Source: Escherichia phage altidsur
Sequence record: MN850568.1
Direction: 5' to 3' (one strand)
Length of the DNA stretch: 42,197 nucleotides
Both the position numbers and the translations under genes were made by a program. The notes under the pieces are model-generated. The model was not told the DNA's origin, searched no databases, and saw only the letters and a list, made by a program, of their open reading frames with translations. Below, one piece after another: positions 1 through 28,433 of this stretch (positions within the stretch are counted from its first letter, which is position 1; each line of letters starts with the position of its first letter).

Positions 1-296
1 ATACGTTCGTGCAGCACACCAACATGGTAGCCCGGCAGATGCCCGGCACTGCTGCTGCACTGGGGTGGAGTCGTGATAACGATGCCCAGTTCCAGTTCAT
101 GATGCAGATGGGTTATCAGGCAGGTTCAAGCTGGTATCGTACCGATGGTGCGTACAGCAAACTGGCTGATGCAATCCGTGTTGGCGACCAAGAGAAAGCT
201 GTGCAGGCTCTGGCTGCGACCCCGGCTTATAAGCTGTCGCAGGACGAGCGTAAGCAGTATTACGTCCAAACTCTACTCGCAGGTATGCAGGAATGA
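1..296 (+). CDS. Internal virion protein B, C-terminal end (partial at window start; probable continuation of the ORF that runs off the window 3' end)
   Basis: Open frame from position 3 to the stop at 294-296. The ORF leaving the window at 42197 joins it in frame (2401 + 296 nt = 899 codons). ATGA stop/start overlap with the next gene. Confidence 0.6.
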   Translation, partial: TFVQHTNMVARQMPGTAAALGWSRDNDAQFQFMMQMGYQAGSSWYRTDGAYSKLADAIRVGDQEKAVQALAATPAYKLSQDERKQYYVQTLLAGMQE

Positions 297-3200
297 TTAT
301 CACACAAGAATCGCTCGACAAGTTCATGGCTCCCAAGCAGGGGGCCAACGCTCCCTCGCTGGTTATTCCAGCTCCCGTAAAGACTGCTGACCTCAGCACT
401 CCACTGCAAGATGCCACTCGTCAGGGTGCCGTCGAGCAGTTCGACAAGATGCAGGAACTGGAAGCAACTCCGATGGCCACGGCGTTGAGTGCTTCTGTGA
501 AGAACTGGGACACCACCCAGCTCTTTGATGCCGCGTTCAACAAGCCCACCTTCCAAGCTGACCCGGACTTCAAGCCCAACGAGGCATTGCAGAACGTACA
601 GTTCCCGGTGGGTGCAGATGACCGGACGTTCCTGTTCAAATCCAAATCCATGGACGAGTTCAACTGGCGTACCCAGCAGCTCCAAGAGATGCGTGAGCGT
701 ACCCAGTTGGCTCACACTGCCCCGGTGATGAACGCGGTTCTGCAATTCGCTGACCCGCTGTATCTCGCCACCGACCTGCTCTCGATGGGAGCAGGCACTG
801 CCCTGAAATTAGGTCGCCTCGGAACCGCCGCTGTCGGTGCAGCTTCAACTGCTGCCACTATGGCAGCGGTGGGTAACGAAGCACGCCCAGTGTCTCAGAA
901 CGAGATTATCTTCGCGGCTGCCCTGCACGGGGCAGCCACCACCGCGTTCTATCGTCCCGCCGCCGCGCCAGCTCGTCGCCTTGATGAACTGTCGCCGGAG
1001 GAGTTCGCTGCTGAGATGCAGCGCCGTAACGGTATCGACCCCAACAACCCGCCGCAGTTCGACCCGAACAATGCTATGTCGCCGCTGGCGATGTCGCTCG
1101 GTGTTGGCCCACGCGGTGCCGCTGTCGTTGACGAGGTTCCTGAATCCATCCGGGCTACGGCTCAGCGTGGACTCGACCTCGCACGCCGTGGCGAGCAGAC
1201 CAACCCTAAGCGTCCGTTCCTTGAGTGGTCACTGTTCAAGTCTTTCAGCCAGCACTCTGATGAATCAAGTGCTCTGGCCGGGCGACTGCTGGACGACCCA
1301 CTGAATCCGAACATGACCTCCGCTGCGTCTATCCAGCGCGAGACTCAGGCTCGCTTTGGTGTGCTGCTGAACCAGTATGAGGATACACTGCGCAACGCCC
1401 TGAACGCTGATGGCTGGAGCAACATCCGGCGCTTCCGCGACCCGGTAGGCTATCGCCGGGCGCAGCAGGAGTTTGAAGCTGCTGTGCGTCTGGAGCTGGA
1501 TAAGCGTATGATTGACCCCAGTTTCAAAGGCGCTAACCCAAATGTGGCCAACGCTGCCGACCGACTGGGGGAATACTCCCGTGCCGTTGGCCGTGAGCTG
1601 GAGAACAAGGGTATGGTTGAACCGGGCTTCGTTGAGAAGAACCCGTACTACTACCCGCGCCGGATGAACGTGACCAAGATTGAGCAGGCTGAGCAGTTGC
1701 TCGGCAAGAAACCATTCATGAAGCAGATGACGACTGCTGTGCAGCGCGGTATCGGTACTGACCGTCCGACTGCCAACGTCATTGCCCATGCTATGGTTGA
1801 GCGTGCTCGTCGTAAGGGTTACGGTATCGACAACTCCGGGATGATTATCAACAAGGAGGGTCGTGATGAACTACTCGAAATCATCGCGAACACGAAAGGT
1901 ATGGACGAGGCTGCCAAGGCCCGTGCGTCAGCGCTCCTTCGTGAGTCTGGCTCGGACGCTGGTAGACCGTCAATGCTTAAGAGCCGTATCAACATCGACA
2001 TGATGCACACGCTTGGCCCTAACTTGCAGGTGCGTGACCTGTTCGATGACAGCATCACCAGTATGATGGACAGCTACAACCGACGCATTACTGGGCGACT
2101 GGCTCTGCACGAGGCTGGATTGGGTACTGACGCTGAACGAGCTGCTGCTCGCGAGGCTCTGGCCAAATCTATCCCGGACAGCACTGCACGCCGCAAGGCT
2201 CTCGACCAGTACGACAACATCATGGCCTACTACCAAGGTGCTCCTGTTGGTGAGGAGATGCCGGAGTTCATGCGTCAGTTGTCGGCGCTGACTCAGGCCA
2301 CTGGTCTGGCTGCATCTGGTCTGTGGCAGTTGGTGGAATACGGCACGATGATGCAACGTTTCGGGGCAGTCAATACGTTTCGCGCCATGATGCGTACAAT
2401 TCCCGAAGCACGCGCACTATTTAAGCAAATGAGGGTGTCTACTAAGGAAGGTCGTCAGTTGGCACTTGATGCCGAGGAAGCTCTGACTGCGGCGGTTGCG
2501 AGTGATATTCGTATGCGCCCAATCATGCAGCACTATGACGACATGTTCTCTGCGGATAAGTCTCCGTGGGTCATGCGTATGGAACACCTGCGCGATGCCA
2601 CGATGTTCATCAACATGCAGAAGTACATCCACTTCCACCAGACTCGAACCAACGCTGCGCTCGTAATGCAGACGCTGCGCAAGGCAGCCGAAGGTGATGC
2701 CAAGGCTATTGCAGCCATGAAAACCTACGGTGCCAATGACGCGCTGCTGGCTGACATTCGCAAGCAGGTTGGTACTCATGGCACCAAGCCTGACGCTTGG
2801 GATGAAGGGGTGTTCAATCGCTCCCGCATTGTCATGATGAACGCCATGGATGACGCTATTGTTCGTGCTCGCGTAGGTGAGCTGCCTGCTTTCGCTGAGT
2901 TCAGTACCCTCGGCAAGTTCCTGTTTACGTTCCGTCGATTCGTCGCGGCTACGCACAACAAGACGCTGGTTGGTACTTGGAATCGCGAGGGTGCGCGTGG
3001 TATGGCTACGCTAATGGCGTACCAGTACCCGCTGGCGATGATGGCCACCGCTGCCAACAACGTCATCTCCGGCAAGGCATTCTCTGACCCGGACACTATG
3101 GCCCCGAACAAACTGGCAGGTCAGGCACTGAACTATCTTGGTGCTATCGGCTTTGCCTCTGAGTTCACTGGTGTACTGACCGGGCAGCAGCGTAGCTTCG

Positions 3201-3403
3201 GTGCGCCGGGCCTGCTGTTCCTCGACCGCCTGTATGGTGTCGCCGGGGCCACCTCTGCTACGGCAGGGAGTCTGGCTACTGGTGACATCGACCAAGCCGG
3301 GCATGACGCTCGCAAGGCTGCCGGGAACATCATTCAGGCTCTCCCACTAATCTCCATTGTGCCGGGTGTCCGAGCACTCAACGAAGCAGTTAAGGGCGAA
3401 TAA
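293..3403 (+). CDS. Internal virion (core/ejection) protein C, 1036 aa
   Basis: Very long ORF between the lysozyme-domain internal virion protein and the tailspike, matching T7/phiKMV gene order for the large core protein; ATGA coupling upstream, TAATG coupling downstream. Confidence 0.65.
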   Translation: MIITQESLDKFMAPKQGANAPSLVIPAPVKTADLSTPLQDATRQGAVEQFDKMQELEATPMATALSASVKNWDTTQLFDAAFNKPTFQADPDFKPNEALQNVQFPVGADDRTFLFKSKSMDEFNWRTQQLQEMRERTQLAHTAPVMNAVLQFADPLYLATDLLSMGAGTALKLGRLGTAAVGAASTAATMAAVGNEARPVSQNEIIFAAALHGAATTAFYRPAAAPARRLDELSPEEFAAEMQRRNGIDPNNPPQFDPNNAMSPLAMSLGVGPRGAAVVDEVPESIRATAQRGLDLARRGEQTNPKRPFLEWSLFKSFSQHSDESSALAGRLLDDPLNPNMTSAASIQRETQARFGVLLNQYEDTLRNALNADGWSNIRRFRDPVGYRRAQQEFEAAVRLELDKRMIDPSFKGANPNVANAADRLGEYSRAVGRELENKGMVEPGFVEKNPYYYPRRMNVTKIEQAEQLLGKKPFMKQMTTAVQRGIGTDRPTANVIAHAMVERARRKGYGIDNSGMIINKEGRDELLEIIANTKGMDEAAKARASALLRESGSDAGRPSMLKSRINIDMMHTLGPNLQVRDLFDDSITSMMDSYNRRITGRLALHEAGLGTDAERAAAREALAKSIPDSTARRKALDQYDNIMAYYQGAPVGEEMPEFMRQLSALTQATGLAASGLWQLVEYGTMMQRFGAVNTFRAMMRTIPEARALFKQMRVSTKEGRQLALDAEEALTAAVASDIRMRPIMQHYDDMFSADKSPWVMRMEHLRDATMFINMQKYIHFHQTRTNAALVMQTLRKAAEGDAKAIAAMKTYGANDALLADIRKQVGTHGTKPDAWDEGVFNRSRIVMMNAMDDAIVRARVGELPAFAEFSTLGKFLFTFRRFVAATHNKTLVGTWNREGARGMATLMAYQYPLAMMATAANNVISGKAFSDPDTMAPNKLAGQALNYLGAIGFASEFTGVLTGQQRSFGAPGLLFLDRLYGVAGATSATAGSLATGDIDQAGHDARKAAGNIIQALPLISIVPGVRALNEAVKGE

Positions 3404-5775
3404 TGGCGAACAGCTATAACACCTACGTGGCGAACGGGACGCAGACTGCGTTCCTCGTCACCTTTGAGCAGCGCGTATTTACGCAGATTCAGGTGTACCT
3501 CAACTCCACACTCGTGACGGAAGGGTACACCTACAACTCTGTGACCAAACAGATTGTCTTCTCGACAGCACCTGTCGCCGGGACAATCGTACGCCTGCAA
3601 CGCTACACCTCTGAGACGCTGCTTAACAAGTTTGGTCAGGACGCTGCCTTCACGGGCAGCAACCTCGACGAGAACTTCGAGCAGATTCTGTTTAAGGCTG
3701 AGGAAACTCAGGAGGCATGGCTCGCGCCGCTCGACCGAGCAGTCCGTGTCCCGAACTCCGAAGTCTCCATCAACGCATTACCGAACGTCGCTGGCCGCCG
3801 TAACAAGGCATTGGGCTTTGACAACGCTGGTCAGCCGTTCATGATTCCTCTGGTTGATATTCCTGACTCAGCTCTGGCCATTGCGCTGGCGATGAATGAC
3901 GGCGGTAAGTGGATTGGCACCCTTGGCGGTGGTACGTTCCTCGACCGTCAGGACACTGTGTGTCTGTCAGAGTTCACCAACAACACTGGCTATGCGTCCA
4001 TCGCTGCCGCTGTGCAGGCATGTTTCGACTATGCCAAGGCAAACGGTAAGGTTGTGGATGCACGCGGCTGGGAAGGCACTGTGGACTCCACGGTGACAAT
4101 GGATGGTATTGAGGTCGTCGGCGGTACGTGGCACGGTAAGGCAGATATTCGACTGATTGACTCAACGTTCCGCAACTTCAAGGCATCCACTGTGCGTGTG
4201 GCGTACTGGGGTGGCAAGGTTCGCATTGCTGACTATGAGTTCACCAGTGCGCCGAGCAACTCCAAAGTTACGTCAATCCTGTTCCAAGGCAACATCGCCG
4301 GGGGCAGCTACGTAATCGAGAACGGTATCCACCGTAACGGCAAGTTCGGTATTCTGCAACAGGGTACTGGTGAGGCTATCACCAATGGCATTATCCGCAA
4401 CGTCGCTATGATGGACATGATGGGTGATGGCATTGAGATGAACGTAATCAACAAGCACTATGACGGTGGCCTGCTGATTGAGAACATCTACCTTGAGAAT
4501 ATCGACGGCACCAACGCACCTATTCCACTGTCCAACTGGGGCATCGGTATCGGTATCGCTGGTCAAGGCCCGTTCGGTTGGGACGCTGCTGAGACTCAGT
4601 ACGCGAAGAACGTGACCGTGCGTAACGTCCATGCTCCGCGCGGTGTACGTCAGGTTGTCCACTTCGAAGTTACCCGCGACAGCGTGTGCGAGAACGTGGT
4701 CTGTAACCCTGACCTGTCCGTGTCCACTGGTACTGGCCTGTCTGCTGCTGGCGTAATCACGTACGGCTGCAAACGCATGACCATTGATGGCGTGGTTGGT
4801 GAGCCTATCAACACAGGTGCAACCTCCCCTAACGATATTCGTCTCGTTATGCTGGAGTGGGGTGCTAACCAAGCAGGTGCTGGCGGTACGCCGGGTGCTG
4901 CGTGTCCATCTTTTGACATGACCGTGCGCAACGTGCAGACCCGCACCGGGCGCTTCTATGCAGGTGTCGGCTCCGACGACGATAACACCAACACGTACCA
5001 CCTTGAAAACATTCACTGTTACAAGATGACGCTGTTCGGTGTGGCTACTCTGCTGAACATGACCAACGTTACTGGTGTCGTATTCGACGCAGTTGGCGAT
5101 GACTCCAGCGGCGGTACTTCGTCCAACGGTGTGTACCCGCGTAAGAAGACGTGCCTTAACATGGTGAACGTGAACTTCTACGGGCCGGGTATGACCGAGG
5201 GTGCGCTGTACAGTAAGGCTCGGTACTCGGACATCAGTACGCTGAACTCCAACGTCCGTGCAATCCCGTACACCAACATCCAAGGTAACGTTGGCGCTAT
5301 CCTGTCTCCAGTGAACCGCATCCTGACGCTGCCAAACAACTTGGCAACGCTGACAGGTGCTGAGTTCCCGACTGGTAAAGAGTTCCCGGAAGGTACTGTC
5401 CTGCTGAAAACTGATGGTTCTGGTGGTAACTTCATCGTCACCCAGTTTGGTGCCTACATCCCTAATGATGGCAACAACTTCAAGGTGCGTGCTGCTGCCG
5501 CTGGCCAGACGTATCTGGAGCAGAACCTGACTCCGGCTGGTACTCAGGCATCCACCTCGTGGCTGTACCACAAACCAATCTCTGCTGGCACCCGGTTGAA
5601 CATCCCCGGCGCTGGGCCGAGTGGCGGTACACTGACTGTGACGGTGGTGCGTGCTCCATATCAGGTGGACAACAACATCGGGAACCCGGTGCGCATCGAC
5701 ATCACACCGCCGCTGGTGACTGCTATCCCTGCCGGGACGCAGCTCGCCGCGACTTATCCGGTGGCTTACATCTAA
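3403..5775 (+). CDS. Tail fiber/tailspike protein with T7 gp17-like N-terminal anchor and a beta-helix (depolymerase-like) body
   Basis: The first ~150 aa resemble the conserved N-terminal adaptor of T7-type tail fibers by eye; the rest is Gly/Asn/Thr/Val-rich with repeated G-x-hydrophobic strands typical of right-handed beta-helix spikes; position after the internal virion proteins. Confidence 0.75.
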   Translation: MANSYNTYVANGTQTAFLVTFEQRVFTQIQVYLNSTLVTEGYTYNSVTKQIVFSTAPVAGTIVRLQRYTSETLLNKFGQDAAFTGSNLDENFEQILFKAEETQEAWLAPLDRAVRVPNSEVSINALPNVAGRRNKALGFDNAGQPFMIPLVDIPDSALAIALAMNDGGKWIGTLGGGTFLDRQDTVCLSEFTNNTGYASIAAAVQACFDYAKANGKVVDARGWEGTVDSTVTMDGIEVVGGTWHGKADIRLIDSTFRNFKASTVRVAYWGGKVRIADYEFTSAPSNSKVTSILFQGNIAGGSYVIENGIHRNGKFGILQQGTGEAITNGIIRNVAMMDMMGDGIEMNVINKHYDGGLLIENIYLENIDGTNAPIPLSNWGIGIGIAGQGPFGWDAAETQYAKNVTVRNVHAPRGVRQVVHFEVTRDSVCENVVCNPDLSVSTGTGLSAAGVITYGCKRMTIDGVVGEPINTGATSPNDIRLVMLEWGANQAGAGGTPGAACPSFDMTVRNVQTRTGRFYAGVGSDDDNTNTYHLENIHCYKMTLFGVATLLNMTNVTGVVFDAVGDDSSGGTSSNGVYPRKKTCLNMVNVNFYGPGMTEGALYSKARYSDISTLNSNVRAIPYTNIQGNVGAILSPVNRILTLPNNLATLTGAEFPTGKEFPEGTVLLKTDGSGGNFIVTQFGAYIPNDGNNFKVRAAAAGQTYLEQNLTPAGTQASTSWLYHKPISAGTRLNIPGAGPSGGTLTVTVVRAPYQVDNNIGNPVRIDITPPLVTAIPAGTQLAATYPVAYI

Positions 5776-6090: not shown

Positions 6091-7850
6091 TGGATTTACA
6101 ACGCCGCATGGTGATGGCAGGAATCGTTCGCGCCCACTACGAGAACAACTTCCCGCTGTTCCTGCATGACTACTTCGCATGGCTGGGCTTTGACCTCACT
6201 GAAATGCAGCTCGACATTGGCCGCTACATGGCCGACAGGACGCTCAAGAACAAGTGCGTCATGGCGCAGCGTGGTGAGGCTAAGTCCACCATCGGTATTG
6301 CCCGTGCTCTATACGAATTTGTGCAGATGCCAAACGCCACTGTGCTGCTGGTATCCGGTTCGGATGACTATGCTGGCACGCTCTCGCACGCTATTGTGTC
6401 TGCCATCATGCAATGGGACAGACTCGAATGGCTGCGCCCGGAGACTCGCGCTGGCGCACGTACGTCATACACTGACGGCTTCGACGTGCATCACGCGTTC
6501 CGTATCCCTGACAAACAGCCCTCTGTAAAAGCGGTCGGTATCTTCGGCCAGTTGCAGGGGAACCACGTATCGCTGTTGATTGCCGATGACGTGGAGACTA
6601 CCAGTAACGGTAGCTCTCCAGCCAACCGCGCCCGTATCAACACCCTGACCAAAGAGTTCGCGGCTATCGCCAACGATGGTGCAGAGATTCTGTACCTCGG
6701 CACTCCGCAGACTCAGGACTCCATCTATAACACGCTCCCGCAGCGTGGCTTCGACGTTCGTATCTGGCCCGGTCGTTTCCCTACGCCGGAAGAAGAAGAA
6801 CGGTACGGCGGCTGTCTTGCCCCGTGGATTAAGCAGAAGATGGAAGGCCACCCGGAACTGCGTACTGGCTACGGTATCCTTGGGAACCGTGGTGCTCAGA
6901 CTGACCCTCAGCGTTATTCTGAGGAGAAGCAGCTCCAGAACGAACGAGATTATCAGCAGGCAGGCTTCCAGTTGCAGTTCATGCTGGACACGTCGCTGTC
7001 TGATGCGCTCAAACAAACGTTACATCTCAGAGACTTAATCTTCTTCCACGGCTCTACGCAGTCTGCGCCGGAGGTTCTGCATTGGTCTAACCACCCGCGC
7101 CATGCCGCCGAGCTGCCACTGGATTTCCCACTTGCTCGCGCTCAGCTATTCTTGGCTGCTGACTTCTCGGACACGTATGTACCATTCGAAAATACCTCGG
7201 CGTTTCTTGACCCTGCTGGTGGTGGGTCGGACGAATCAGTTATCATCGCCACAGCTTCTGTCGGCCCGTTTATCCACGTCATTGGTATGCACGTCTACCA
7301 CGGCGGCCAGACGGAGGAGAACATCAAGGCGGCGGTAGAGTGGCTGTCTGAGGTCGGCGTTAAGCGGCTGGTCATTGAGGATAACATGGGCCACGGAACC
7401 GTGACCAACATGTACCGAGGTGAGATTAAGCGGCAGGGCTTGACCATTGGCTGCGAAGGCGTGTACTCGTCCGGCCAGAAAGAGGTGCGTATCATCAACC
7501 GCCTCGGCCCAATCATGCAGCGCCACCGTGTCGTTGTGCATTGGTGCGTTGTTGAAGAAGACCTGCGGCTGTGCCGGGGGATGAATAACGGTGGTCGCGA
7601 GTTCAGCCTGTTCTGGCAGCTCCAGAACCTGACACAAGACCGTCAATCAATCCCTCATGATGACCGTATTGAAACCCTATCTGCTGCCGTGTACCTGCAC
7701 GCTGAGGTGCTACAGCAGGACGAACATGAAGAAGCTGCCAAGCGCGAGACTGCTGCTGCACGAGAGTTCCTTGCCAACCCCATGGGTTACGACGACTCGA
7801 AGTGGCGCAGCCATAAGCCTGTGCGCGGCGTGCGACGGAGACTACGTTAA
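6090..7850 (+). CDS. Terminase large subunit (DNA maturase B), 586 aa
   Basis: Same length as T7 gp19 (586 aa); ATPase-like segment (LLVSGSDD...LLIADDVETT) followed by a nuclease-like C-terminal half; position after the tail fiber and small terminase. Confidence 0.85.
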   Translation: MDLQRRMVMAGIVRAHYENNFPLFLHDYFAWLGFDLTEMQLDIGRYMADRTLKNKCVMAQRGEAKSTIGIARALYEFVQMPNATVLLVSGSDDYAGTLSHAIVSAIMQWDRLEWLRPETRAGARTSYTDGFDVHHAFRIPDKQPSVKAVGIFGQLQGNHVSLLIADDVETTSNGSSPANRARINTLTKEFAAIANDGAEILYLGTPQTQDSIYNTLPQRGFDVRIWPGRFPTPEEEERYGGCLAPWIKQKMEGHPELRTGYGILGNRGAQTDPQRYSEEKQLQNERDYQQAGFQLQFMLDTSLSDALKQTLHLRDLIFFHGSTQSAPEVLHWSNHPRHAAELPLDFPLARAQLFLAADFSDTYVPFENTSAFLDPAGGGSDESVIIATASVGPFIHVIGMHVYHGGQTEENIKAAVEWLSEVGVKRLVIEDNMGHGTVTNMYRGEIKRQGLTIGCEGVYSSGQKEVRIINRLGPIMQRHRVVVHWCVVEEDLRLCRGMNNGGREFSLFWQLQNLTQDRQSIPHDDRIETLSAAVYLHAEVLQQDEHEEAAKRETAAAREFLANPMGYDDSKWRSHKPVRGVRRRLR

Positions 7851-8518
7851 TGTCCTTGATTACCATCACAGACCAACAGCGGTATGACATCGGCTACCGC
7901 GCCAACATTGCTGCGAACCTTACGCAGCGTTTCGTGAACAACACGACCACTATCACGGCAGCTCAGGCTGCTGACATCGACACGGCCATCCAGCAGCTCA
8001 TGACAGCGTTGGAAGCGGCTGGGTATAGTTCCGTACCGGAAGGCTCAGTAATCGTCGCAGACGGCGCTACAGCGACTGTAGTGAACCAAGACGGCACTGT
8101 GTCCAAGTCGGGTACGGTTGAGGTCGATGGCTCTACTTATCAGATTCGATTCCCGGTGACTGTCGGTATGAAGTCCAACGGTGACTCAATCTCTGTGCAG
8201 AACGTGAACGGTGCCGCTGGCATTACGTCCACTTCCTTCGTGAACACCAACGGCGTGCTGCTGGCAGCCCGGCTCCCGGCGACGGTGGCCTGTATCTCCA
8301 GCGGTAACGGTATCCAAATCCGCAACTCTGCGGGTACGGCTATCGCCAACGCCACGTTTACTGTGTCCAACGGGGTAATCTCGTACGGCACCTTCCCTGC
8401 AACTATCGCTGCTGTGGCTAACGCCGCTGCACTACAGGTTCCGGTGACTGGCACTTACACCGACACTGCAACCTTCACTGTCGCTGGTGGCGTTATCACT
8501 GGCATCACCCTCTCTTAA
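7850..8518 (+). CDS. Hypothetical Gly/Thr/Val-rich protein (possible virion-associated or receptor-binding accessory protein), 222 aa
   Basis: ORF coupled (TAATG) to the terminase stop; beta-strand-rich low-complexity composition; no recognisable catalytic motif. Confidence 0.5.
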   Translation: MSLITITDQQRYDIGYRANIAANLTQRFVNNTTTITAAQAADIDTAIQQLMTALEAAGYSSVPEGSVIVADGATATVVNQDGTVSKSGTVEVDGSTYQIRFPVTVGMKSNGDSISVQNVNGAAGITSTSFVNTNGVLLAARLPATVACISSGNGIQIRNSAGTAIANATFTVSNGVISYGTFPATIAAVANAAALQVPVTGTYTDTATFTVAGGVITGITLS

Positions 8519-8529
8519 GGAGAATCTTT

Positions 8530-8724
8530 ATGGCACTTGTTGACTCTACCGCTGCTGAACGTGCGGAGTTCGTGGCAGCCTGTAATATGGCAGCCAAGTA
8601 TCTGAACGTTTGGACGGAAGACTACTTCTTCGACACCACCAACACCGAGCTGGTTGCTTACTATCAGACGTTCGTGACCCGTGTACAAACGGCGCTCACC
8701 AACCTCACTAACGGCGGCGCATAA
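8530..8724 (+). CDS. Hypothetical protein, 64 aa
   Basis: Short ORF with GGAGA RBS in the gap between flanking genes, same strand and tight spacing. Confidence 0.4.
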   Translation: MALVDSTAAERAEFVAACNMAAKYLNVWTEDYFFDTTNTELVAYYQTFVTRVQTALTNLTNGGA

Positions 8725-8734
8725 GGAGTAGAGT

Positions 8735-9223
8735 ATGAAACTGTCTCGGCTAATGGCCGGGGCAGTCCTCTCATTGTCACTGACATTGACGGGCTGCTCC
8801 GCAACTAGCGCACTGTCTGCTGTAACTTCGGCTGTCTCTCCCAACAAGCCGGAACTCACGGCGCAAGTCGGTGCAGAGAATACGAAGCAAGGTATCGGTG
8901 TGACTGCGAAACAGTCCGACGAAACAAAGGTCGGTGACGTATCAGGTAACGCGAAAGTGGATACCGCTAAGCAGGGTTCGAATGGCACTTCCGTCAAGGA
9001 CGTTACAGGAGGCTCTGTAAACGCTTCTAAGCAGGGGTCGCAAATGACCCAAGGAAACGTACAGGCTCGCACAGTAATCGTCTCACAGAGCGACCCACGC
9101 AGTCTCCTGTGGGCTTTCGGCATGGGCCTTACATGTATCCTTGGTTTAGTCATGTGGTTTGTACCATCTCCGTGGAAAAGGAAAGTGAAAGATGACGGAA
9201 GCAAAGAAGGAGCCAACTCCTAA
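8735..9223 (+). CDS. Lipoprotein with C-terminal transmembrane helix; unimolecular spanin (u-spanin) candidate
   Basis: N-terminal signal peptide ending in a lipobox (LTLTGC), Thr/Ser/Gly/Lys-rich extended middle, C-terminal hydrophobic helix (LLWAFGMGLTCILGLVMWFVP) followed by a charged tail; located directly upstream of the endolysin. Confidence 0.55.
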   Translation: MKLSRLMAGAVLSLSLTLTGCSATSALSAVTSAVSPNKPELTAQVGAENTKQGIGVTAKQSDETKVGDVSGNAKVDTAKQGSNGTSVKDVTGGSVNASKQGSQMTQGNVQARTVIVSQSDPRSLLWAFGMGLTCILGLVMWFVPSPWKRKVKDDGSKEGANS

Positions 9224-9575
9224 CATCCACTCGCGTATGGGTGCAGTGGAGGCTCGTATGCAATCCGTAGAACTTCGACTCGACAAGCACGAGGTACAAA
9301 TCGCCACCCTTGAAAAAGGCGACGCTGCAATGCTGGCCAAGCTCGCGGAGAACGATACCCGCTGGCAGACCGTTCAACAGCAGCTCCTTGTGGTTGAGCA
9401 AATTCAGGACATTCAGAAGACTATGAGCCATATCGGTAAGCTGTTTACGGCGGCGGCTCACGCTGTCAAATGGTGTCTCTTAACCGCATCCCTGTGTAGC
9501 GGTATCTACTTAGCGATTAAGGCTGGCGACCTCACGGCTCTCCAGTCCTTTATCACAACGATTATGGGGATGTAA
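9192..9575 (+). CDS. Lysis-cassette membrane protein with N-terminal coiled coil and single C-terminal TM helix (holin/antiholin/spanin-like candidate)
   Basis: ORF between the lipoprotein and the endolysin; heptad-like N-terminus, one hydrophobic helix (WCLLTASLCSGIYLAI); TAATG coupling to the endolysin start. An alternative start at 9237 would avoid overlap with the upstream gene. Confidence 0.5.
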   Translation: MTEAKKEPTPNIHSRMGAVEARMQSVELRLDKHEVQIATLEKGDAAMLAKLAENDTRWQTVQQQLLVVEQIQDIQKTMSHIGKLFTAAAHAVKWCLLTASLCSGIYLAIKAGDLTALQSFITTIMGM

Positions 9576-10111
9576 TGACTAACTTTGAAATCTGTATGCG
9601 GTTCACCGGGCTGGCAGAAGGCGGTTACGCCAACCTGCCCGGAGACACCGGAGGGGAAACGAATCATGGAATTAGTGACGCTCGTGATGGAAAGCTGGAT
9701 GGTAGAGCTTGCGGTGTCCCTACTGGGCTTGGCGGCACTATTTGTGTGCCTATCCGCAACCTCACCAAAGCGCAAGCCGAAGCAATCTATCGACGGGACT
9801 ACTACAGCCCCATCCGAGGTGACGAGCTTCACCCTGCGATTGCATGTGCCGTGTTCGACTACGGCGTTAACTCAGGTGTCTCCCGTGCGGCGAAAGCTCT
9901 ACAGCGGGTATGCGGCGTTGCACAAGACGGGGTTATTGGCCCTGCTACCGTGGCAGCAGCCAAACGTCTGGAACCTCACTCCGCAGCAGCAGCCATCTGT
10001 GACCTTCGTATTGCGTTCCTAAAGGCTTCTACAGCCCCGACAATCGTTCGGTATAGGGATGCCTTGGTAGCTCGTGCAAAACGCTGTAGCGACTACTGTG
10101 CGACGCTGTAG
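9575..10111 (+). CDS. Endolysin, GH108-type muramidase with C-terminal peptidoglycan-binding-like region, 178 aa
   Basis: N-terminal motif LAEGGYANLPGDTGGETNHGIS and downstream IYRRDYY match the GH108 signature (EGG...DPGG.T..GI...YxxDYW) read by eye; no N-terminal TM/SAR segment. Confidence 0.8.
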   Translation: MTNFEICMRFTGLAEGGYANLPGDTGGETNHGISDARDGKLDGRACGVPTGLGGTICVPIRNLTKAQAEAIYRRDYYSPIRGDELHPAIACAVFDYGVNSGVSRAAKALQRVCGVAQDGVIGPATVAAAKRLEPHSAAAAICDLRIAFLKASTAPTIVRYRDALVARAKRCSDYCATL

Positions 10112-10320
10112 GGGCTATCGAAAGCTGGAGCATTGAACAGGCCGTGGGGAGCAATACCCCCGGCTTGAAAATTGCATGTTTATAGTTGCCCCTCCCTCGA
10201 CCCAAATGACCGCGCGTACCCCCATGACGTGTGCGCGGATTAGCCTCGCGACGTGCGCGATATTGCCTCGCGTGTGCTGCGCGGCGCGTCAAGAGGATTG
10301 CCTGCGTGCGGTATAGCTCG

Positions 10321-10710
10321 TGCGTGTCGCGTTTCACTATCGCCGCGCGGTGCTGTCCTGCTGGCTGGCTGTGTGCCTGCTGTGTGGGCTATCGGTGGCG
10401 GTGTGGTGCTGTCCTATTGGGGACGCTCTGCGCTGGCTGCGTGGTGCTGCTGGCTGCGCGTGGTCGGTCGGGTATCTGTCTCTTTTCGTCGTGGTGTGTG
10501 GTGCTGGTGTGTAGCGGTGTGCGGCGTGGTGCTGCCGTCCTGCTGTGTGGTGTGCTGGTCTACTGTCTGCGCCTGCCAGCTCTGCGCGTCATGCTCTGCT
10601 ACTGTCTCTTACTGTCCTACTGCCTTCACTGTCTGCCGTCTGTCAGTCCTACGGTCTGCCATCCGTCATCCGTTCGGCGCTCGCTTGTTTCGGCTGCGCC
10701 GCGCTCGCTC
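10321..10710. other. A-depleted (G/T/C-only) strand-asymmetric tract; candidate genome-terminus / terminal-repeat-associated region
   Basis: By manual count roughly twenty A residues in ~390 nt on the + strand. Because every stop codon contains A, all three + frames stay open, which produces the overlapping Cys/Arg-rich ORFs in the track. Sits between the last late gene and the early promoters. Confidence 0.6.
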
Positions 10711-10730
10711 TGCGTATCTAGCGATACTAT

Positions 10731-10752
10731 ATCACTATAGACACTTTCATAA
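10731..10752 (-). promoter_or_regulatory. Copy of the 22-bp phage promoter-like motif ATGAAAGTGTCTATAGTGATAT, inverted; + strand reads ATATCACTATAGACACTTTCAT
   Basis: Reverse complement is identical over 22 bp to 31211-31232; contains the CTATAG core reminiscent of the CACTATAG core of T7/SP6-type promoters. Confidence 0.45.
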
Positions 10753-10757
10753 TTATC

Positions 10758-10856
10758 TAATGATTACAGTAACTTATAACCTATCTGATAACGGTATTCT
10801 ATCCAGTGTTATGATTATCTAATCAAACTTTAATCCTAATGATTACAGTAACTTAT
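10758..10856. repeat. AT-rich direct repeats (20-bp TAATGATTACAGTAACTTAT at 10758-10777 and 10837-10856, plus duplicated ATTATCTAA)
   Basis: Exact 20-bp duplication 79 bp apart, read directly, immediately downstream of the A-depleted tract and the inverted promoter-like motif. Confidence 0.6.
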
Positions 10857-10877
10857 CACTTTTCTTGAAAATAATAC

Positions 10878-10907
10878 TTGCCAATCTGTTTTGGTTTATG
10901 CTGTAAT
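10878..10907 (+). promoter_or_regulatory. Host sigma70-type promoter candidate (TTGCCA-N18-TGTAAT)
   Basis: -35-like TTGCCA at 10878-10883 and the same TATGCTGTAAT -10 box as the next two promoters. Confidence 0.35.
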
Positions 10908-11687: not shown

Positions 11688-12080
11688 ATGTACCGTATCT
11701 ATGCAAGCGCATATCGTCAGGGCAACGCTGAATGTGTTAATCTGGCGCTTCATTGCAAGGCACTGCGAACGGTGCAGGATATGTTCGGAGTGGTTCCGGT
11801 CACACTGACAGGCAAGTTCGACAATGCGTACGAGTTAAGCATGGTCTTTCCTGTCGATGGAATCTACGAAATCAGGCAGGCTGTTAAGCTGTTCTGTAAA
11901 GCATTCGAACAGGACTGCATCATGGTAGTGACCAAAGATGATGATGCAATCTTCATGGATTCACCATATCCGGGCAAGCCTGCTGGCAAGTTCGTCAGCA
12001 AGACTGAGGCCGAAATGGAAGCCGGGCAGCACACCGCTTGGACTTACGATGGTGAACAATTTTGGGTAGTGGAGGCGTAA
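11688..12080 (+). CDS. Early hypothetical protein, 130 aa
   Basis: First ORF after the ~450-nt leader; GGAGA RBS 8 nt upstream of the ATG. Confidence 0.55.
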   Translation: MYRIYASAYRQGNAECVNLALHCKALRTVQDMFGVVPVTLTGKFDNAYELSMVFPVDGIYEIRQAVKLFCKAFEQDCIMVVTKDDDAIFMDSPYPGKPAGKFVSKTEAEMEAGQHTAWTYDGEQFWVVEA

Positions 12081-17222: not shown

Positions 17223-17426
17223 ATGTTCCGAGTTATATTGTTGTTCCTGTTCCTCGTTATTATTTGGGGAGCTTTATGGATGGCGCTGGCAGTGTTCGCA
17301 CTGATACCAGCCATCGGTGAGTCGGCTACTTCTTCGGTGGGTACGCTGCTCGGTATGCTGGTAGGCTGGGGCTTGATGCACGTAAGCCTGAGCGTAGGTC
17401 AGAGCCGGAGGTGGATTAGATGGTAA
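17223..17426 (+). CDS. Small membrane protein (two predicted TM helices), 67 aa
   Basis: Hydrophobic segments LLFLFLVIIWGALWMALAVFALI and LLGMLVGWGLMHV; downstream of a promoter-like motif. Confidence 0.5.
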   Translation: MFRVILLFLFLVIIWGALWMALAVFALIPAIGESATSSVGTLLGMLVGWGLMHVSLSVGQSRRWIRW

Positions 17427-18568: not shown

Positions 18569-19834
18569 GTGCTTGACAAGCTGTTGTTAACGGTGATGCG
18601 CGAGCGCGGGAAGTACAACTCCCTGCGACACGCCATCCCGGAAGATACAATGAGCCAGACCACGGGCTATATGCTGCGTGCTTACGGCTCATACTTTGAC
18701 GCGTTCCCGGACAGTGACTTCATTGACATTGAGACACTGGGTACGCATGTTCGTTTGAAGACAGGCAGCACGCCTGAACAGATGGCAGCCTTCGATTCGT
18801 TGTGCGCTCAGCTCAAAGAGTACAAGCCGACGAAGGAACAGAAGGAGGGCATCCTTGACCAGCTCGTAGAGTTGGACACTGCTGGTCGTGCGAACCTGCT
18901 AATGCAGAGGTACGACAATGGTGAAGAACTGGATATTATCTATGAGCTTGGCCGTCTGGCTGAGGGCGCACGCCGCAGTCGGGGTCAATCATCCGTTACC
19001 GATTACGTCGATGACGATGTTGTGGACATTATTAATCGGACTGATGATGACCAAGGCTTTAAGTTCGGTCTCATGTGCCTGCAAGATAGCGTACGCGTAC
19101 TGCTTCCCGGCGACTCCGTTGCAATCGCTGCCCGACCTGACAGTGGGAAGACCAGCTTCATCGCGTTTAACCTTACGCGAATGGCGGCGACAGCAGCGAA
19201 GCTCTATCCGGGCAGACCAATCCTGTGGTTCAACAACGAAGGGCAGGGCATCAACATCATCCCGCGCATCTATCAGGCGGCGCTCAACTGTACGCTCCCG
19301 GAACTGAAAGAGCTGGGTGAGGACAGGAGCAAGCTGCACGCTGCGTATGCCAAGGCACTGGGTGCGCCAGCCAATGTGATTCGTGTGAAGGATATGCACG
19401 GTGCAACGCTGGCGAAAGCTGAGCAGGTTATCGAAGCGATGAACCCGTGCATTGTGGTGTGGGATATGCTTGCCAACTTCAAGCTGTCTGTGTCTGACCC
19501 GTCCAGTAACAAGGCGAGTCAGGTCGAGCAGCTATGGCAGGAGGTACGTGAGCTGGCTGTGCGTCACAACTTCGTGTCGCTGGCTACGGTTCAGGTATCT
19601 GCTGATGGTGCCGACGATATGTTCCCGGCACTGGATGCACTCAAGGATTCCAAGACTGGTATCCAAGGGGCGACTGATGTTATCGTGATGCTCGGCAGTG
19701 TGGATGACCCATCACTGGCAGCACGGCGCGGTGTCAGTACGCCGAAGAACAAACGCCAGATTGCTGGGCGTCCAAGCAACGTGCGGTCACAGGTACACTT
19801 CTTTGCCGACCGCTGCCAATACGAGGATATGTAA
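18569..19834 (+). CDS. DNA helicase (DnaB/T7 gp4 helicase-domain family), 421 aa
   Basis: Walker A (ARPDSGKTSF); Walker B-like IVVWDML and further downstream helicase-like segments; GTG start overlapping the upstream stop. Confidence 0.8.
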   Translation: MLDKLLLTVMRERGKYNSLRHAIPEDTMSQTTGYMLRAYGSYFDAFPDSDFIDIETLGTHVRLKTGSTPEQMAAFDSLCAQLKEYKPTKEQKEGILDQLVELDTAGRANLLMQRYDNGEELDIIYELGRLAEGARRSRGQSSVTDYVDDDVVDIINRTDDDQGFKFGLMCLQDSVRVLLPGDSVAIAARPDSGKTSFIAFNLTRMAATAAKLYPGRPILWFNNEGQGINIIPRIYQAALNCTLPELKELGEDRSKLHAAYAKALGAPANVIRVKDMHGATLAKAEQVIEAMNPCIVVWDMLANFKLSVSDPSSNKASQVEQLWQEVRELAVRHNFVSLATVQVSADGADDMFPALDALKDSKTGIQGATDVIVMLGSVDDPSLAARRGVSTPKNKRQIAGRPSNVRSQVHFFADRCQYEDM

Positions 19835-25866: not shown

Positions 25867-26990
25867 TGACCAAGTTAACGAATCACCAACTCAAAGAAGA
25901 CATTGCCGAAGGGCTTGGCACCAAAGCCATTGCGGATAAGCACGACATGACCGAGAGTGCCATCCGATACCGGAAGCGCCAGCTTGCCAAGAGCGGCTGG
26001 AGTCCTGAGCACGACATGACGAAGGAAGTACCGGAGCCGTATGCAGTCAAGGGTACGTCCACGCTGTACGATAAGGACGGCAACGTTGTCATGCAGTGGG
26101 TGAAGACTGCGCTCGACCGTGAGCAAGAGCTGGCTATGCTACAGGCAGCAGTTGATGCAATCAGTGAGAGCATCGTGCCGGAGCCGCCGCGCTTGTATGC
26201 AGGTCGCACAGCGCCAGCCGATTTGCTTAACCTGTTCGTCCTGACTGACTACCACCTCGGTATGCTGGCGTGGGCTGAGGAGACTGGCGACGACTGGGAT
26301 ATGAAGATTGCGGAAGACCTGCTGGTCAAGTGGTTCGCCGCCGCCATCGACAGTGCGCCGCCAGCTCAGGTTGCTATCTTCGGACAGCTCGGTGACTTCC
26401 TGCACTGGGATGGGCTGGATGCAGTAACGCCGTCGAGTGGTCATGTGCTGGATGCTGACACGCGATTCCAGAAGTTGGTGCGTGTGGCCATTCGAGCGCA
26501 GCGCCGCATCATTGGTATGCTGCTGGAGAAGTTCCCGCAGGTTCACGTAGTGTGTGCCGAGGGCAACCATGACATGGCCAGCTCTATCTGGATGCGTGAG
26601 CTGCTGCATGTACTGTACGCCGACGAGCCGCGTGTTACTGTTGACCGCAGCCCTGACCCGTACTACTGCTATGAGCATGGTGAGACGGCACTGTTCTTCC
26701 ACCATGGCCACAAGCGTAAGGCAGAACAACTGGAGACTGTACTGGTCGCCAAGTTCCGCGAAGTGTATGGCCGAACCAAACATGCTTATGCACACGTTGG
26801 CCACCTGCATCACAAGAAGGTACTGGAGTCTGGTGTTATGGTTGTCGAGCAGCACCGTACGCTGGCGGCGAAGGATGCCTACGCTTCTCGTGGTGGTTGG
26901 CTGAGCGAGCGCAGCGCGAGCGTGATTACGTACCATACCCGGTACGGCGAGGTTGCACGATTCACGATTAGCCCGGAGATGTTAGAGTGA
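25863..26990 (+). CDS. Calcineurin-like metallophosphoesterase with N-terminal HTH-like region, 375 aa
   Basis: Metallophosphatase motifs in order: LGDFLHWDG, AEGNHD, FFHHGH, VGHLHH; N-terminal ~40 aa helix-turn-helix-like. Confidence 0.65.
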   Translation: MMTKLTNHQLKEDIAEGLGTKAIADKHDMTESAIRYRKRQLAKSGWSPEHDMTKEVPEPYAVKGTSTLYDKDGNVVMQWVKTALDREQELAMLQAAVDAISESIVPEPPRLYAGRTAPADLLNLFVLTDYHLGMLAWAEETGDDWDMKIAEDLLVKWFAAAIDSAPPAQVAIFGQLGDFLHWDGLDAVTPSSGHVLDADTRFQKLVRVAIRAQRRIIGMLLEKFPQVHVVCAEGNHDMASSIWMRELLHVLYADEPRVTVDRSPDPYYCYEHGETALFFHHGHKRKAEQLETVLVAKFREVYGRTKHAYAHVGHLHHKKVLESGVMVVEQHRTLAAKDAYASRGGWLSERSASVITYHTRYGEVARFTISPEMLE

Positions 26991-27680: not shown

Positions 27681-28257
27681 ACGTGGTGACAAGTTCTGTC
27701 TGGATATTAACCGCGACTACCAAAGCCCACGGCTCAACGCTATGCGGGACAACGGCATCATCCTGACGTACGATGAACCCTATGATGTACCTAATGACAG
27801 CAGGGATTATTACACCTACGTTTGGGACGGCAGGACGGAACATCTGGTACTGGAGCCTTATGAGGTACAGCCAGTCCAGACTGCGTTCATTGAGAACGAC
27901 CCATATGACCCGGCCTCTGATGTTGAGGTGGCCGTGGCCATTGGTCAGGGTGTTGGTGGGCCGGGCGGTATGAAGTTCGACGGCGGCAAACCGCGCATGG
28001 CCCTGCTGTTCGACGGTTGCCCGAATGCACTGGAGGCTGTAGCCAGCGTGCTAACCTTCGGTGCTCAGAAGTACGCAGCTCACTCGTGGCAGACCGTACC
28101 GGAAGGTGAGGAACGCTACAAGTCAGCGCTGCTTCGTCACCTGACCGCAGTGGGTAAGGGTGAGGAGACTGACCCGGAATCCAATCTGCACCATCTGGCG
28201 CACGCTGCTTGCAATGCGCTGTTCATTCTGGAACTTGCTTTAAGGAAAACGAAATGA
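27673..28257 (+). CDS. Conserved phage protein resembling dATP/dGTP pyrophosphohydrolase-type nucleotide hydrolase domains, ~194 aa
   Basis: Segment KFDGGKPRMALL...FGAQKYAAHSWQ...RYKSALLRHL...ESNLHHLAHAACNALFILE; family assignment from memory only. ATG overlaps the upstream stop (ATGAGTAA). Confidence 0.5.
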   Translation: MSKRGDKFCLDINRDYQSPRLNAMRDNGIILTYDEPYDVPNDSRDYYTYVWDGRTEHLVLEPYEVQPVQTAFIENDPYDPASDVEVAVAIGQGVGGPGGMKFDGGKPRMALLFDGCPNALEAVASVLTFGAQKYAAHSWQTVPEGEERYKSALLRHLTAVGKGEETDPESNLHHLAHAACNALFILELALRKTK

Positions 28258-28433
28258 GTGCTTTACTTTATGTGATTGCTTTGTTCTGGTTCGTGTACTT
28301 TACACTGGCCACCCTCAGCGCGTGCAAGTCTTATAACTTGACGCACTACCCGACACGGGCTGGCTCTGCTGGTTTCGTTGTGTGGGTACTGTTGGCTGTA
28401 CTGCCAACTTGGTTCATCTGCTATCTGGCGTAG
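28254..28433 (+). CDS. Small two-TM membrane protein (holin-like topology), 59 aa
   Basis: ATGA-coupled internal ATG of track ORF 28209..28433; hydrophobic helices LLYVIALFWFVYFTLATL and FVVWVLLAVLPTWFICYLA. Confidence 0.5.
   Translation: MSALLYVIALFWFVYFTLATLSACKSYNLTHYPTRAGSAGFVVWVLLAVLPTWFICYLA

Follow-up and report, generated by a model that had tools for sequence, protein, structure and literature searches.

Escherichia phage altidsur (sequence record MN850568.1) belongs to Bonnellvirus in the Autographiviridae, and its lysis region is 98.3% identical to that of Escherichia phage aldrigsur. The genome has 55.7% GC and every annotated gene lies on the + strand. We analyzed the whole 42,197-nucleotide record (the window), a complete genome, with respect to one open reading frame (ORF) that is embedded in the endolysin gene in the +1 frame, and which a sequence-only reading had put forward as a possible gene-within-gene holin. 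The features at the locus are given below, where KD19 stands for the best 19-residue Kyte-Doolittle hydropathy window.

9575-10111 (+): endolysin gene, GH108 family (Pfam PF05838, E 2.3e-22; phrog_315 endolysin, E 5.8e-41)
9666-10022 (+): embedded ORF in the +1 frame of the endolysin gene, ATG at 9666, stop TAA at 10020-10022, 118 aa, translation verified
9650-9656 (+): Shine-Dalgarno-like (SD-like) GGAGGGG, 9 nt 5' of the ATG, made of the endolysin codons Gly26-Gly27-Glu28 with the rare Gly codons GGA and GGG
9666-9668 (+): start codon ATG, made by endolysin His31 CAT and Gly32 GGA
9687-9689 and 9699-9701 (+): two more in-frame ATGs, at endolysin Asp-Gly pairs (GAT GGN), ahead of the hydrophobic segment
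9699-9758 (+): predicted transmembrane helix, embedded codons 12-31, MVELAVSLLGLAALFVCLSA, KD19 2.24, overlapping the variable endolysin loop DGRACGVPTGLGGTICVPI
9762-9785 (+): basic cluster SPKRKPKQ, directly after the helix and on the cytoplasmic side by the positive-inside rule

Coordinates and translation bore out the 118-codon ORF as it had been described from the sequence, together with its hydrophobic helix followed by SPKRKPKQ and the GGAGGGG about 9 nt upstream. The Gly-Gly-Glu codons that form this SD-like site belong to the conserved endolysin motif GGETN. The two additional ATGs are possible alternative starts of the embedded ORF, and the open +1 frame itself reaches upstream to a TTG at 9585 (145 aa). 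The order of the product is MELVTLVMESWM-VELAVSLLGLAALFVCLSA-T-SPKRKPKQ, followed by the remainder of the tail. Its KD19 of 2.24 is rare among the alternate-frame ORFs, only 2 of 27 of which had a value of 1.6 or more. A structure prediction by AlphaFold2 (AF2) from a 16-sequence alignment gave one helix at residues 2-31 with a predicted local distance difference test (pLDDT) score of 75-87, the rest being disordered. The tail has a net charge of +8, as counted from the translation. In all the lineages that we compared, the N-terminal flank of the helix has a net charge of 0 to -2 and is devoid of Lys and Arg, the next 15 residues beyond the helix have a charge of +1 to +4, and the protein as a whole has a net positive charge. 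This charge asymmetry, taken with the positive-inside rule, predicts a single-pass inner-membrane protein with its N-terminus out and its C-terminus in. The SPKRKPKQ cluster by itself is weak evidence, because a reading of the codons indicates that most of its Lys and Arg residues are forced by the endolysin motif LTKxQAxA. Tryptic peptides expected of the embedded product include QSIDGTTTAPSEVTSFTLR and LYSGYAALHK.

Synonymous codon choice across the clade

We collected diverged relatives (deep lineages) from Logan and IMG/VR contigs, starting from homologues of the endolysin and of gp127, the 127-aa product of the gene just upstream. Their endolysins are 61-79% identical to that of altidsur and their cassettes are syntenic, with a u-spanin (unimolecular spanin), a gp127 homologue and the endolysin. 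A tblastn search of the phage collection revealed a gap in identity from 63% to below 50%, and a DNA-pattern scan of JGI metagenomes added one relative, which was a close one. The pooled tests were done with 12 representative lineages whose pairwise synonymous divergence (proportion of synonymous differences, pS) is 0.50-0.76, near saturation.

In every deep lineage recovered, the +1 frame was open for 115-159 codons over the same region. The embedded ORF was 118 aa long with identical start and stop positions in L022, L027, L032 and L048, 111-130 aa long in L023, L034-36 and L051-53, and 92-101 aa long in L049 and L050. The sequence-only reading had held that stop codons in this frame among related phages would speak against the ORF. 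We found them only in phage LIMEzero, L049 and L050, all in the 3' third, leaving products of 83-101 aa. This outcome does not refute the ORF.

Permutation of synonymous codons within the endolysin gene, lineage by lineage, gave P values of 0.0002-0.019 for the scarcity of +1 stops, and 0.045 for LIMEzero. When the 12 lineages were pooled, the region aligned to endolysin codons 31-148 held 5 +1 stops against 43.2 expected (Poisson P 2.5e-13); this and the other P values are overstated, which weakens the case for a gene, because the lineages share ancestry (pS 0.5-0.76). The flanks of the same gene held 40 stops against 32.9 expected. A second null was built from the codon usage observed in other genes of three genomes, conditional on the amino acid and on the base that follows. 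It gave much the same picture, with 4 stops against 44.2 expected inside the region and 28 against 19.1 in the flanks. The avoidance can be read in individual columns of the alignment. Leu before a codon that starts with A (column 64) is encoded only by CTC or CTT, although CTG is the main Leu codon, and Val before A (column 99) is GTC or GTT without exception. Inside the ORF, GTG, CTA and ATA are restricted to sites where the next base is T or C, while stop-forming codons are used freely just downstream of it.

Several controls calibrated these tests. Stops in the +2 frame agreed with expectation. Among 33 genes from 7 genomes, P was unremarkable in 30, the exceptions being the genes for the endolysin, the helicase and the RNA polymerase. 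Four outgroup GH108 genes (41-47% identity) had observed and expected +1 stops of 9/9.4, 9/8.4, 15/15.1 and 12/11.4. The longest open +1 runs of these outgroup genes were 38-50 codons, and separate holin or holin-like genes adjoin them.

The start signals gave an independent measure of constraint. In the genome, GGA makes up 5% and GGG 14% of Gly codons. GGA at Gly26 or GGA/GGG at Gly27 occurred in 12/12 deep lineages as compared to 0.24 expected by the codon usage of the genome (P 3.5e-8); in the outgroup both codons are GGC. Similarly, all 10 deep lineages with His or Tyr at position 31 used a codon ending in T, against 0.34 expected (P 2e-5), where the outgroup has CAC. In lineages with Trp or Phe at position 31, an ATG is located 4-5 codons further downstream. 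The hydrophobic segment was a further signal. Of 17 in-clade lineages, 11 had a +1 product more hydrophobic than under synonymous permutation. The Fisher combined P over the 12 lineages was 7.8e-10, and the fraction of endolysin codons with T in the third position was 0.42 over the segment relative to 0.29 for the whole gene. The segment persists despite an endolysin loop of other sequence and length (KD19 2.28 in L053 and 2.65 in L051), and is absent from LIMEzero and the outgroup.

Selection keeps the ORF, its start signals and its hydrophobic segment across the clade, and these are absent in the outgroups. The proposal of a gene within a gene was upheld, since synonymous choice in the endolysin avoids +1 stops and preserves the SD-like site, the ATG and the hydrophobic segment. 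Such selection makes it almost certain that the ORF is translated and functional. Judging from these comparisons, we consider it very probable that a genuine overprinted gene here encodes a single-pass inner-membrane protein. Constraint beyond an open frame, a hydrophobic N-terminus and a basic stretch after it is weak.

Lysis cassette and competing explanations

The role of the embedded protein has to be judged against the rest of the lysis cassette. Between the large terminase (TerL) and u-spanin genes there are a 222-aa and a 64-aa gene, neither with a hydrophobic segment. Two further genes precede the endolysin.

8735-9223 (+): u-spanin gene; N-terminal lipobox LTGC, C-terminal transmembrane segment with KD19 2.01; phrog_1804 'Rz-like spanin', E 1.4e-36
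9192-9575 (+): gp127 gene, 127 aa; coiled coil and C-terminal transmembrane segment; 'hypothetical' in all records; phrog_35530, function unknown

The gp127 gene shares 32 nt with the u-spanin gene, and its stop codon runs into the start of the endolysin gene (TAATG). The u-spanin orthologues of J8-65 and LIMEzero belong to the T1 gp11 family (Kongari et al. 2018, PMC6139136). The N-terminus of the endolysin, MTNFEICMRFTGLAEGGY, is not hydrophobic, indicating a soluble enzyme without a signal-anchor-release (SAR) or signal sequence, and a holin is therefore required. No public Bonnellvirus record annotates a holin or the embedded ORF; what is annotated is an endolysin and a spanin. Annotation of the LIMEzero-like phages likewise gives no holin. 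The claim that the cassette otherwise lacks a holin agrees with the annotation but is partly wrong, as gp127 occupies the usual holin slot between u-spanin and endolysin, has a C-terminal transmembrane segment and weakly resembles XhlA. This hydrophobic segment is conserved in all lineages of the family alignment, LIMEzero included. Members of the gp127 family gave weak matches to the Pfam family XhlA (PF10779) in 11 of 12 cases, with a best E of 5.4e-4 that is below the Pfam cut-off. The altidsur protein scored 14.2 bits against a curated cut-off of 34.7, although its architecture of a coiled coil and a C-terminal transmembrane segment agrees with the family. AF2 predicted a long helix (12-111) and a short helix (114-126) for gp127.

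Other genes were considered for the holin role. Those located 3' of the endolysin in LIMEzero, L022 and L051 (~71 and 190 aa) were rejected as they have no transmembrane segment. Elsewhere in the window, a 67-aa protein at 17223-17426 (+) with an N-terminal KD19 of 2.82 and a 59-aa protein at 28254-28433 (+) with a C-terminal KD19 of 2.25 are formally other membrane-protein candidates; both are encoded in the early/middle region, far from the lysis cassette. The outgroup contig L054 (JBQVBY010117921.1, 44 kb) provides a natural contrast to the altidsur cassette. Its GH108 endolysin is 47% identical to that of altidsur, and in its lysis region (1-3534) the endolysin gene is preceded by two holin-like genes with several transmembrane segments each (112 and 98 aa) and followed by a DUF2514 Rz-like gene, with no u-spanin, gp127 or +1 ORF. 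Downstream of the altidsur endolysin lies non-coding sequence (10140-10900), of which the first ~550 nt are G+C-rich, A-poor and repetitive (GCTG, GTGT) with several spurious ORFs, followed by an abrupt switch to AT-rich sequence at ~10700-10900. In the J8-65 record, a 259-bp terminal repeat begins 73 nt past the endolysin stop. Because of the position of that repeat, 10140-10900 is probably the genome-end and early-promoter region.

The reading that we favor, with a probability of roughly 0.55, gives the embedded protein the role of pore-forming holin, either by itself or in partnership with gp127. The protein is small, has at least one transmembrane segment and a basic hydrophilic C-terminus, and is tied to an endolysin, which are the descriptive features of holins reportedly listed by Wang, Smith and Young in 2000. 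Translation, membrane insertion, topology and the holin role are all properties that we infer from the predicted product and its conservation. By this mechanism, ribosomes on the late lysis mRNA (u-spanin, gp127, endolysin) would initiate internally at the ATG at 9666 by means of GGAGGGG. The 118-aa product would start with a short acidic stretch, cross the membrane once with a helix at ~residues 12-31 and end in a disordered, basic tail of ~85 residues, in an N-out, C-in orientation. It would build up in the inner membrane and, alone or with gp127, permeabilize the membrane late in infection. The soluble endolysin would then gain access to the peptidoglycan, and the u-spanin would complete lysis. 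Among the proteins of the cassette, the embedded one is the best candidate for the holin-type lysis protein of the clade. A reading of it as an o-spanin (outer-membrane spanin subunit) or lipoprotein was rejected, given that it has no lipobox, that its N-terminus is acidic without Lys or Arg and that a u-spanin is already present. Moreover, Cys28 is not conserved, being Phe or Tyr in Lidtsur, L027, L048 and L022.

A number of observations count against this reading. Searches of Pfam and PHROGs with E up to 0.1 gave no holin-family or other match for the embedded protein. A profile search of 1.84 billion representative proteins gave one match, WP_048338823.1, which is the embedded ORF itself, called once as a 'hypothetical protein' in an Enterobacter assembly containing such a phage. 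The lack of a homologue beyond these ORFs fits an origin by overprinting. The tail of ~85 residues is predicted to be disordered, and its conservation is largely imposed by the endolysin frame. In LIMEzero, which has been isolated and propagated and whose endolysin is 63% identical to that of altidsur, the ORF is reduced to 83 aa with a KD19 of 0.92 and no convincing transmembrane segment. The hydrophobic segments of L049, L034-36 and L052 are also weak (KD19 1.2-1.45). The truncated copy of LIMEzero and the weak segments of L049, L052 and L034-36 mean that the gene is able to degrade, and given these lineages the embedded protein may be dispensable or changed in role. Finally, gp127 is an equally placed holin candidate.

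In a second explanation the embedded gene is real but does not form the hole. Here gp127 would be the holin, and the embedded protein would be an antiholin or timing regulator, or would have some unrelated function at the membrane, for example in superinfection exclusion or membrane depolarization. The position of gp127 is that of the holin in a KP34-type cassette and its transmembrane segment is kept in every lineage, whereas LIMEzero and L049, in which the transmembrane segment of the embedded protein is lost or weakened, still retain gp127, as would fit an accessory and dispensable role for the embedded protein. The loose constraint on the embedded sequence fits as well. However, the architecture of gp127 is unlike that of known holins, with an 85-residue N-terminal coiled coil and a weakly hydrophobic C-terminal segment (KD19 1.58). 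What it does resemble is XhlA, and XhlA in the PBSX system also needs the holin XhlB (PMC5589764). Furthermore, the cassette has no gene for another small membrane protein. This explanation is the main rival, though on balance the less likely one.

A third explanation is a chance open frame, or one kept by a non-coding constraint and giving no functional protein. The window and the close relatives alone are unable to separate an embedded gene from chance. The window has 20 alternate-frame ORFs on the coding strand that start with ATG and reach 60 aa or more. Of these, 19 lie in the +1 frame, and the embedded ORF is only the fifth longest; an ORF of its length has P ~0.01 under synonymous recoding of the endolysin gene. 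The window also has 71 antisense ORFs that reach 60 aa or more, the longest being 265 aa (for example 26139-26936, 29185-29907 and 8515-9153, all on the - strand). Since there are many such long antisense ORFs though the annotated genes are all on the + strand, ORF length alone is a poor guide here. The embedded ORF is intact, with identical start and stop, in 14/14 Bonnellvirus records. We rejected this within-genus intactness as evidence because two chance +1 ORFs of the TerL gene, used as controls (6166-6528 and 6676-7038), persist equally at 88-94% nucleotide identity within the genus; the same control ORFs are broken in LIMEzero, as chance predicts. On the close relatives and the shortened ORF of LIMEzero, before the deep lineages were compared, chance seemed the better explanation.

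Synonymous-site conservation was compared across related phages, as the sequence-only reading had suggested. Within the genus this counted against a gene, as there was no difference between the overlap (pS 0.14-0.26) and the flanks (0.15-0.31), and regional nucleotide identity across the overlap was unremarkable. Bonnellvirus variation in the overlap falls mostly at endolysin third positions (50/119 variable columns, vs 23 at first and 14 at second positions). Because these third positions, which vary most, are second positions of the embedded codons, and because pS inside equals that of the flanks, the constraint on the embedded amino-acid sequence is loose. The deep lineages did show a lower pS inside the embedded ORF (0.61) than in the flanks (0.76), but this contrast is not specific because the u-spanin gene also has a low pS (0.62). 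In favor of a gene, the endolysin pS is the lowest or second-lowest among ~40 genes in most within-genus comparisons. The SAMase gene at 11688-12080 (+) likewise has a low pS within the genus (0.15-0.26 as compared to 0.3-0.6 for most genes), and its longest +1 ORF is 43 aa, so that it is without a long alternate-frame ORF.

The warning in the sequence-only reading that chance was a serious alternative was right in that alternate-frame ORFs are common in this genome, and did not hold for the deep lineages with their 4-5 stops against 43-44 expected. In favor of chance, long alternate-frame ORFs abound in this genome (55.7% GC), conservation within the genus is no better than that of the TerL controls, and the tail resembles typical out-of-frame sequence in its composition (34% Ser+Thr+Pro) and predicted disorder. 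In addition, the helicase and RNA polymerase genes also have conserved long +1 runs, and the null could be missing something. Against this, the deficit of stops was obtained with two nulls, while the flanks, the +2 frame, the other genes and four outgroups behaved as expected, and the SD-like site, the ATG and the hydrophobic segment each gave an independent signal. We know of no non-coding mechanism that clears stops from one frame only. Chance or a non-coding constraint thus appears improbable. Least probable of all is a programmed +1 frameshift that would fuse the endolysin N-terminus to the hydrophobic segment, for example as a membrane-tethered fragment: in every lineage the +1 frame stays open 5' of the ATG, back to about endolysin codon 9-15, but this openness is uninformative because there are no at-risk stop sites between codons 15 and 33, such a fusion would hold only ~30 enzyme residues, and a frameshift would not need the ATG and the SD-like site, both of which synonymous choice keeps.

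Known systems and implications

The closest precedent for an embedded holin gene is hol187, which lies inside ply187 of staphylococcal phage 187 (1999 work, cited in PMC4553209). The two are alike in that a small membrane-protein gene lies wholly inside an endolysin gene, in another frame, with its own ribosome-binding site and start, and no separate holin gene adjoins the endolysin. The hol187 gene encodes 57 aa at the 5' end of a CHAP/amidase lysin gene in a Gram-positive phage, and its sequence is unrelated to that of the embedded protein. The altidsur ORF, on the other hand, encodes 118 aa with a single helix and a long disordered tail. It spans the middle two thirds of a gene for a GH108 muramidase, and the phage, a Gram-negative podophage, also has a u-spanin and an XhlA-like gene. 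In this comparison the support for the altidsur gene is comparative, not functional.

Rz1 within Rz, found in lambda and many phages (PMC6139136), is similarly a +1-embedded lysis gene with its own initiation that gene callers often miss. Rz1 is, however, an outer-membrane lipoprotein with a lipobox, whereas the altidsur protein has an acidic N-terminus and no conserved Cys, in a phage with a u-spanin. Gene E of phiX174 lies in the +1 frame within the scaffold gene D and encodes a protein with an N-terminal transmembrane helix and a basic, poorly ordered tail that causes lysis. The E protein brings about lysis on its own by inhibiting MraY, and phiX174 has no endolysin. The overprinted layout of E and the embedded protein is the same, with no sequence similarity between them. 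Since altidsur, unlike phiX174, encodes both an endolysin and a spanin, the function that it still lacks is of the holin type.

In PBSX of Bacillus subtilis, XhlA, XhlB and XlyA are all required for lysis (Toyofuku et al. 2017, PMC5589764). PBSX XhlA is a membrane protein that resembles gp127 in having a coiled coil and a transmembrane segment at its C-terminus, and its gene immediately precedes those for a small holin and the endolysin. This makes PBSX a model for a two-component reading of gp127 with the embedded protein. PBSX differs in being a Gram-positive system and in having XhlB as a separate, non-overlapping gene. XhlB is predicted to have two transmembrane segments. Within the Autographiviridae, KP34-like phages (PMC4411677) have the same order of u-spanin, holin and endolysin, and a u-spanin that is also of the T1 gp11 family. 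The KP34-type cassette combines an 83-aa pinholin with a SAR endolysin, while that of altidsur has a soluble GH108 enzyme with the XhlA-like gp127 in the middle. J8-65 and LIMEzero are the sole members of the family not tied to a pinholin and a SAR endolysin (Kongari et al., PMC6139136).

Two other genes of altidsur contain long open +1 frames. The helicase gene (18596-19834) holds a +1 ORF at 18918-19307 (+) of 129 aa, the ATG of which is kept in 7/7 genomes, LIMEzero included. This ORF has 0 stops against 3.7-3.9 expected in 6 of the 7 genomes, with a permutation P of 0.002-0.07 in all 7. It includes a moderately hydrophobic stretch, LPITSMTMLWTLLIGLMMT, with a KD19 of 1.53. This pattern makes the helicase +1 ORF a candidate for another overlapping gene. 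The RNA polymerase gene (28837-31182) has an open +1 run of 216 codons at 29873-30523 (+). This run has 0 stops against ~7 expected in altidsur, glasur, Kc261, megetsur and LIMEzero, and 8 stops in Lidtsur and J8-65, whose RNA polymerase is more diverged. Its first ATG is not conserved, while a Met ~10 codons in is conserved.

Taken with these known systems, the embedded gene would appear to be an independently evolved further case of a known type of embedded lysis gene. It would also be the first such case from a Gram-negative podophage and the first within a gene of the GH108 family. More tentatively, it could be a holin overprinted de novo that works as a two-component system with gp127 and is the missing holin of Bonnellvirus, the LIMEzero-like phages and unclassified relatives, in a group with at least three overprinted +1 genes, the others being those in the helicase and RNA polymerase genes.

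As this case shows, overlapping genes that are dropped in gene calling can be recovered by applying synonymous-permutation tests to diverged relatives from metagenomes. There is also a practical consequence, as recoding, codon-optimizing, deleting or replacing this GH108 endolysin would unknowingly destroy a second gene. If the embedded protein is indeed a holin, this would be the second holin-type gene described in an alternate frame of an endolysin gene, the first for Gram-negative hosts, and it would fill the holin gap of Bonnellvirus and the LIMEzero-like phages.

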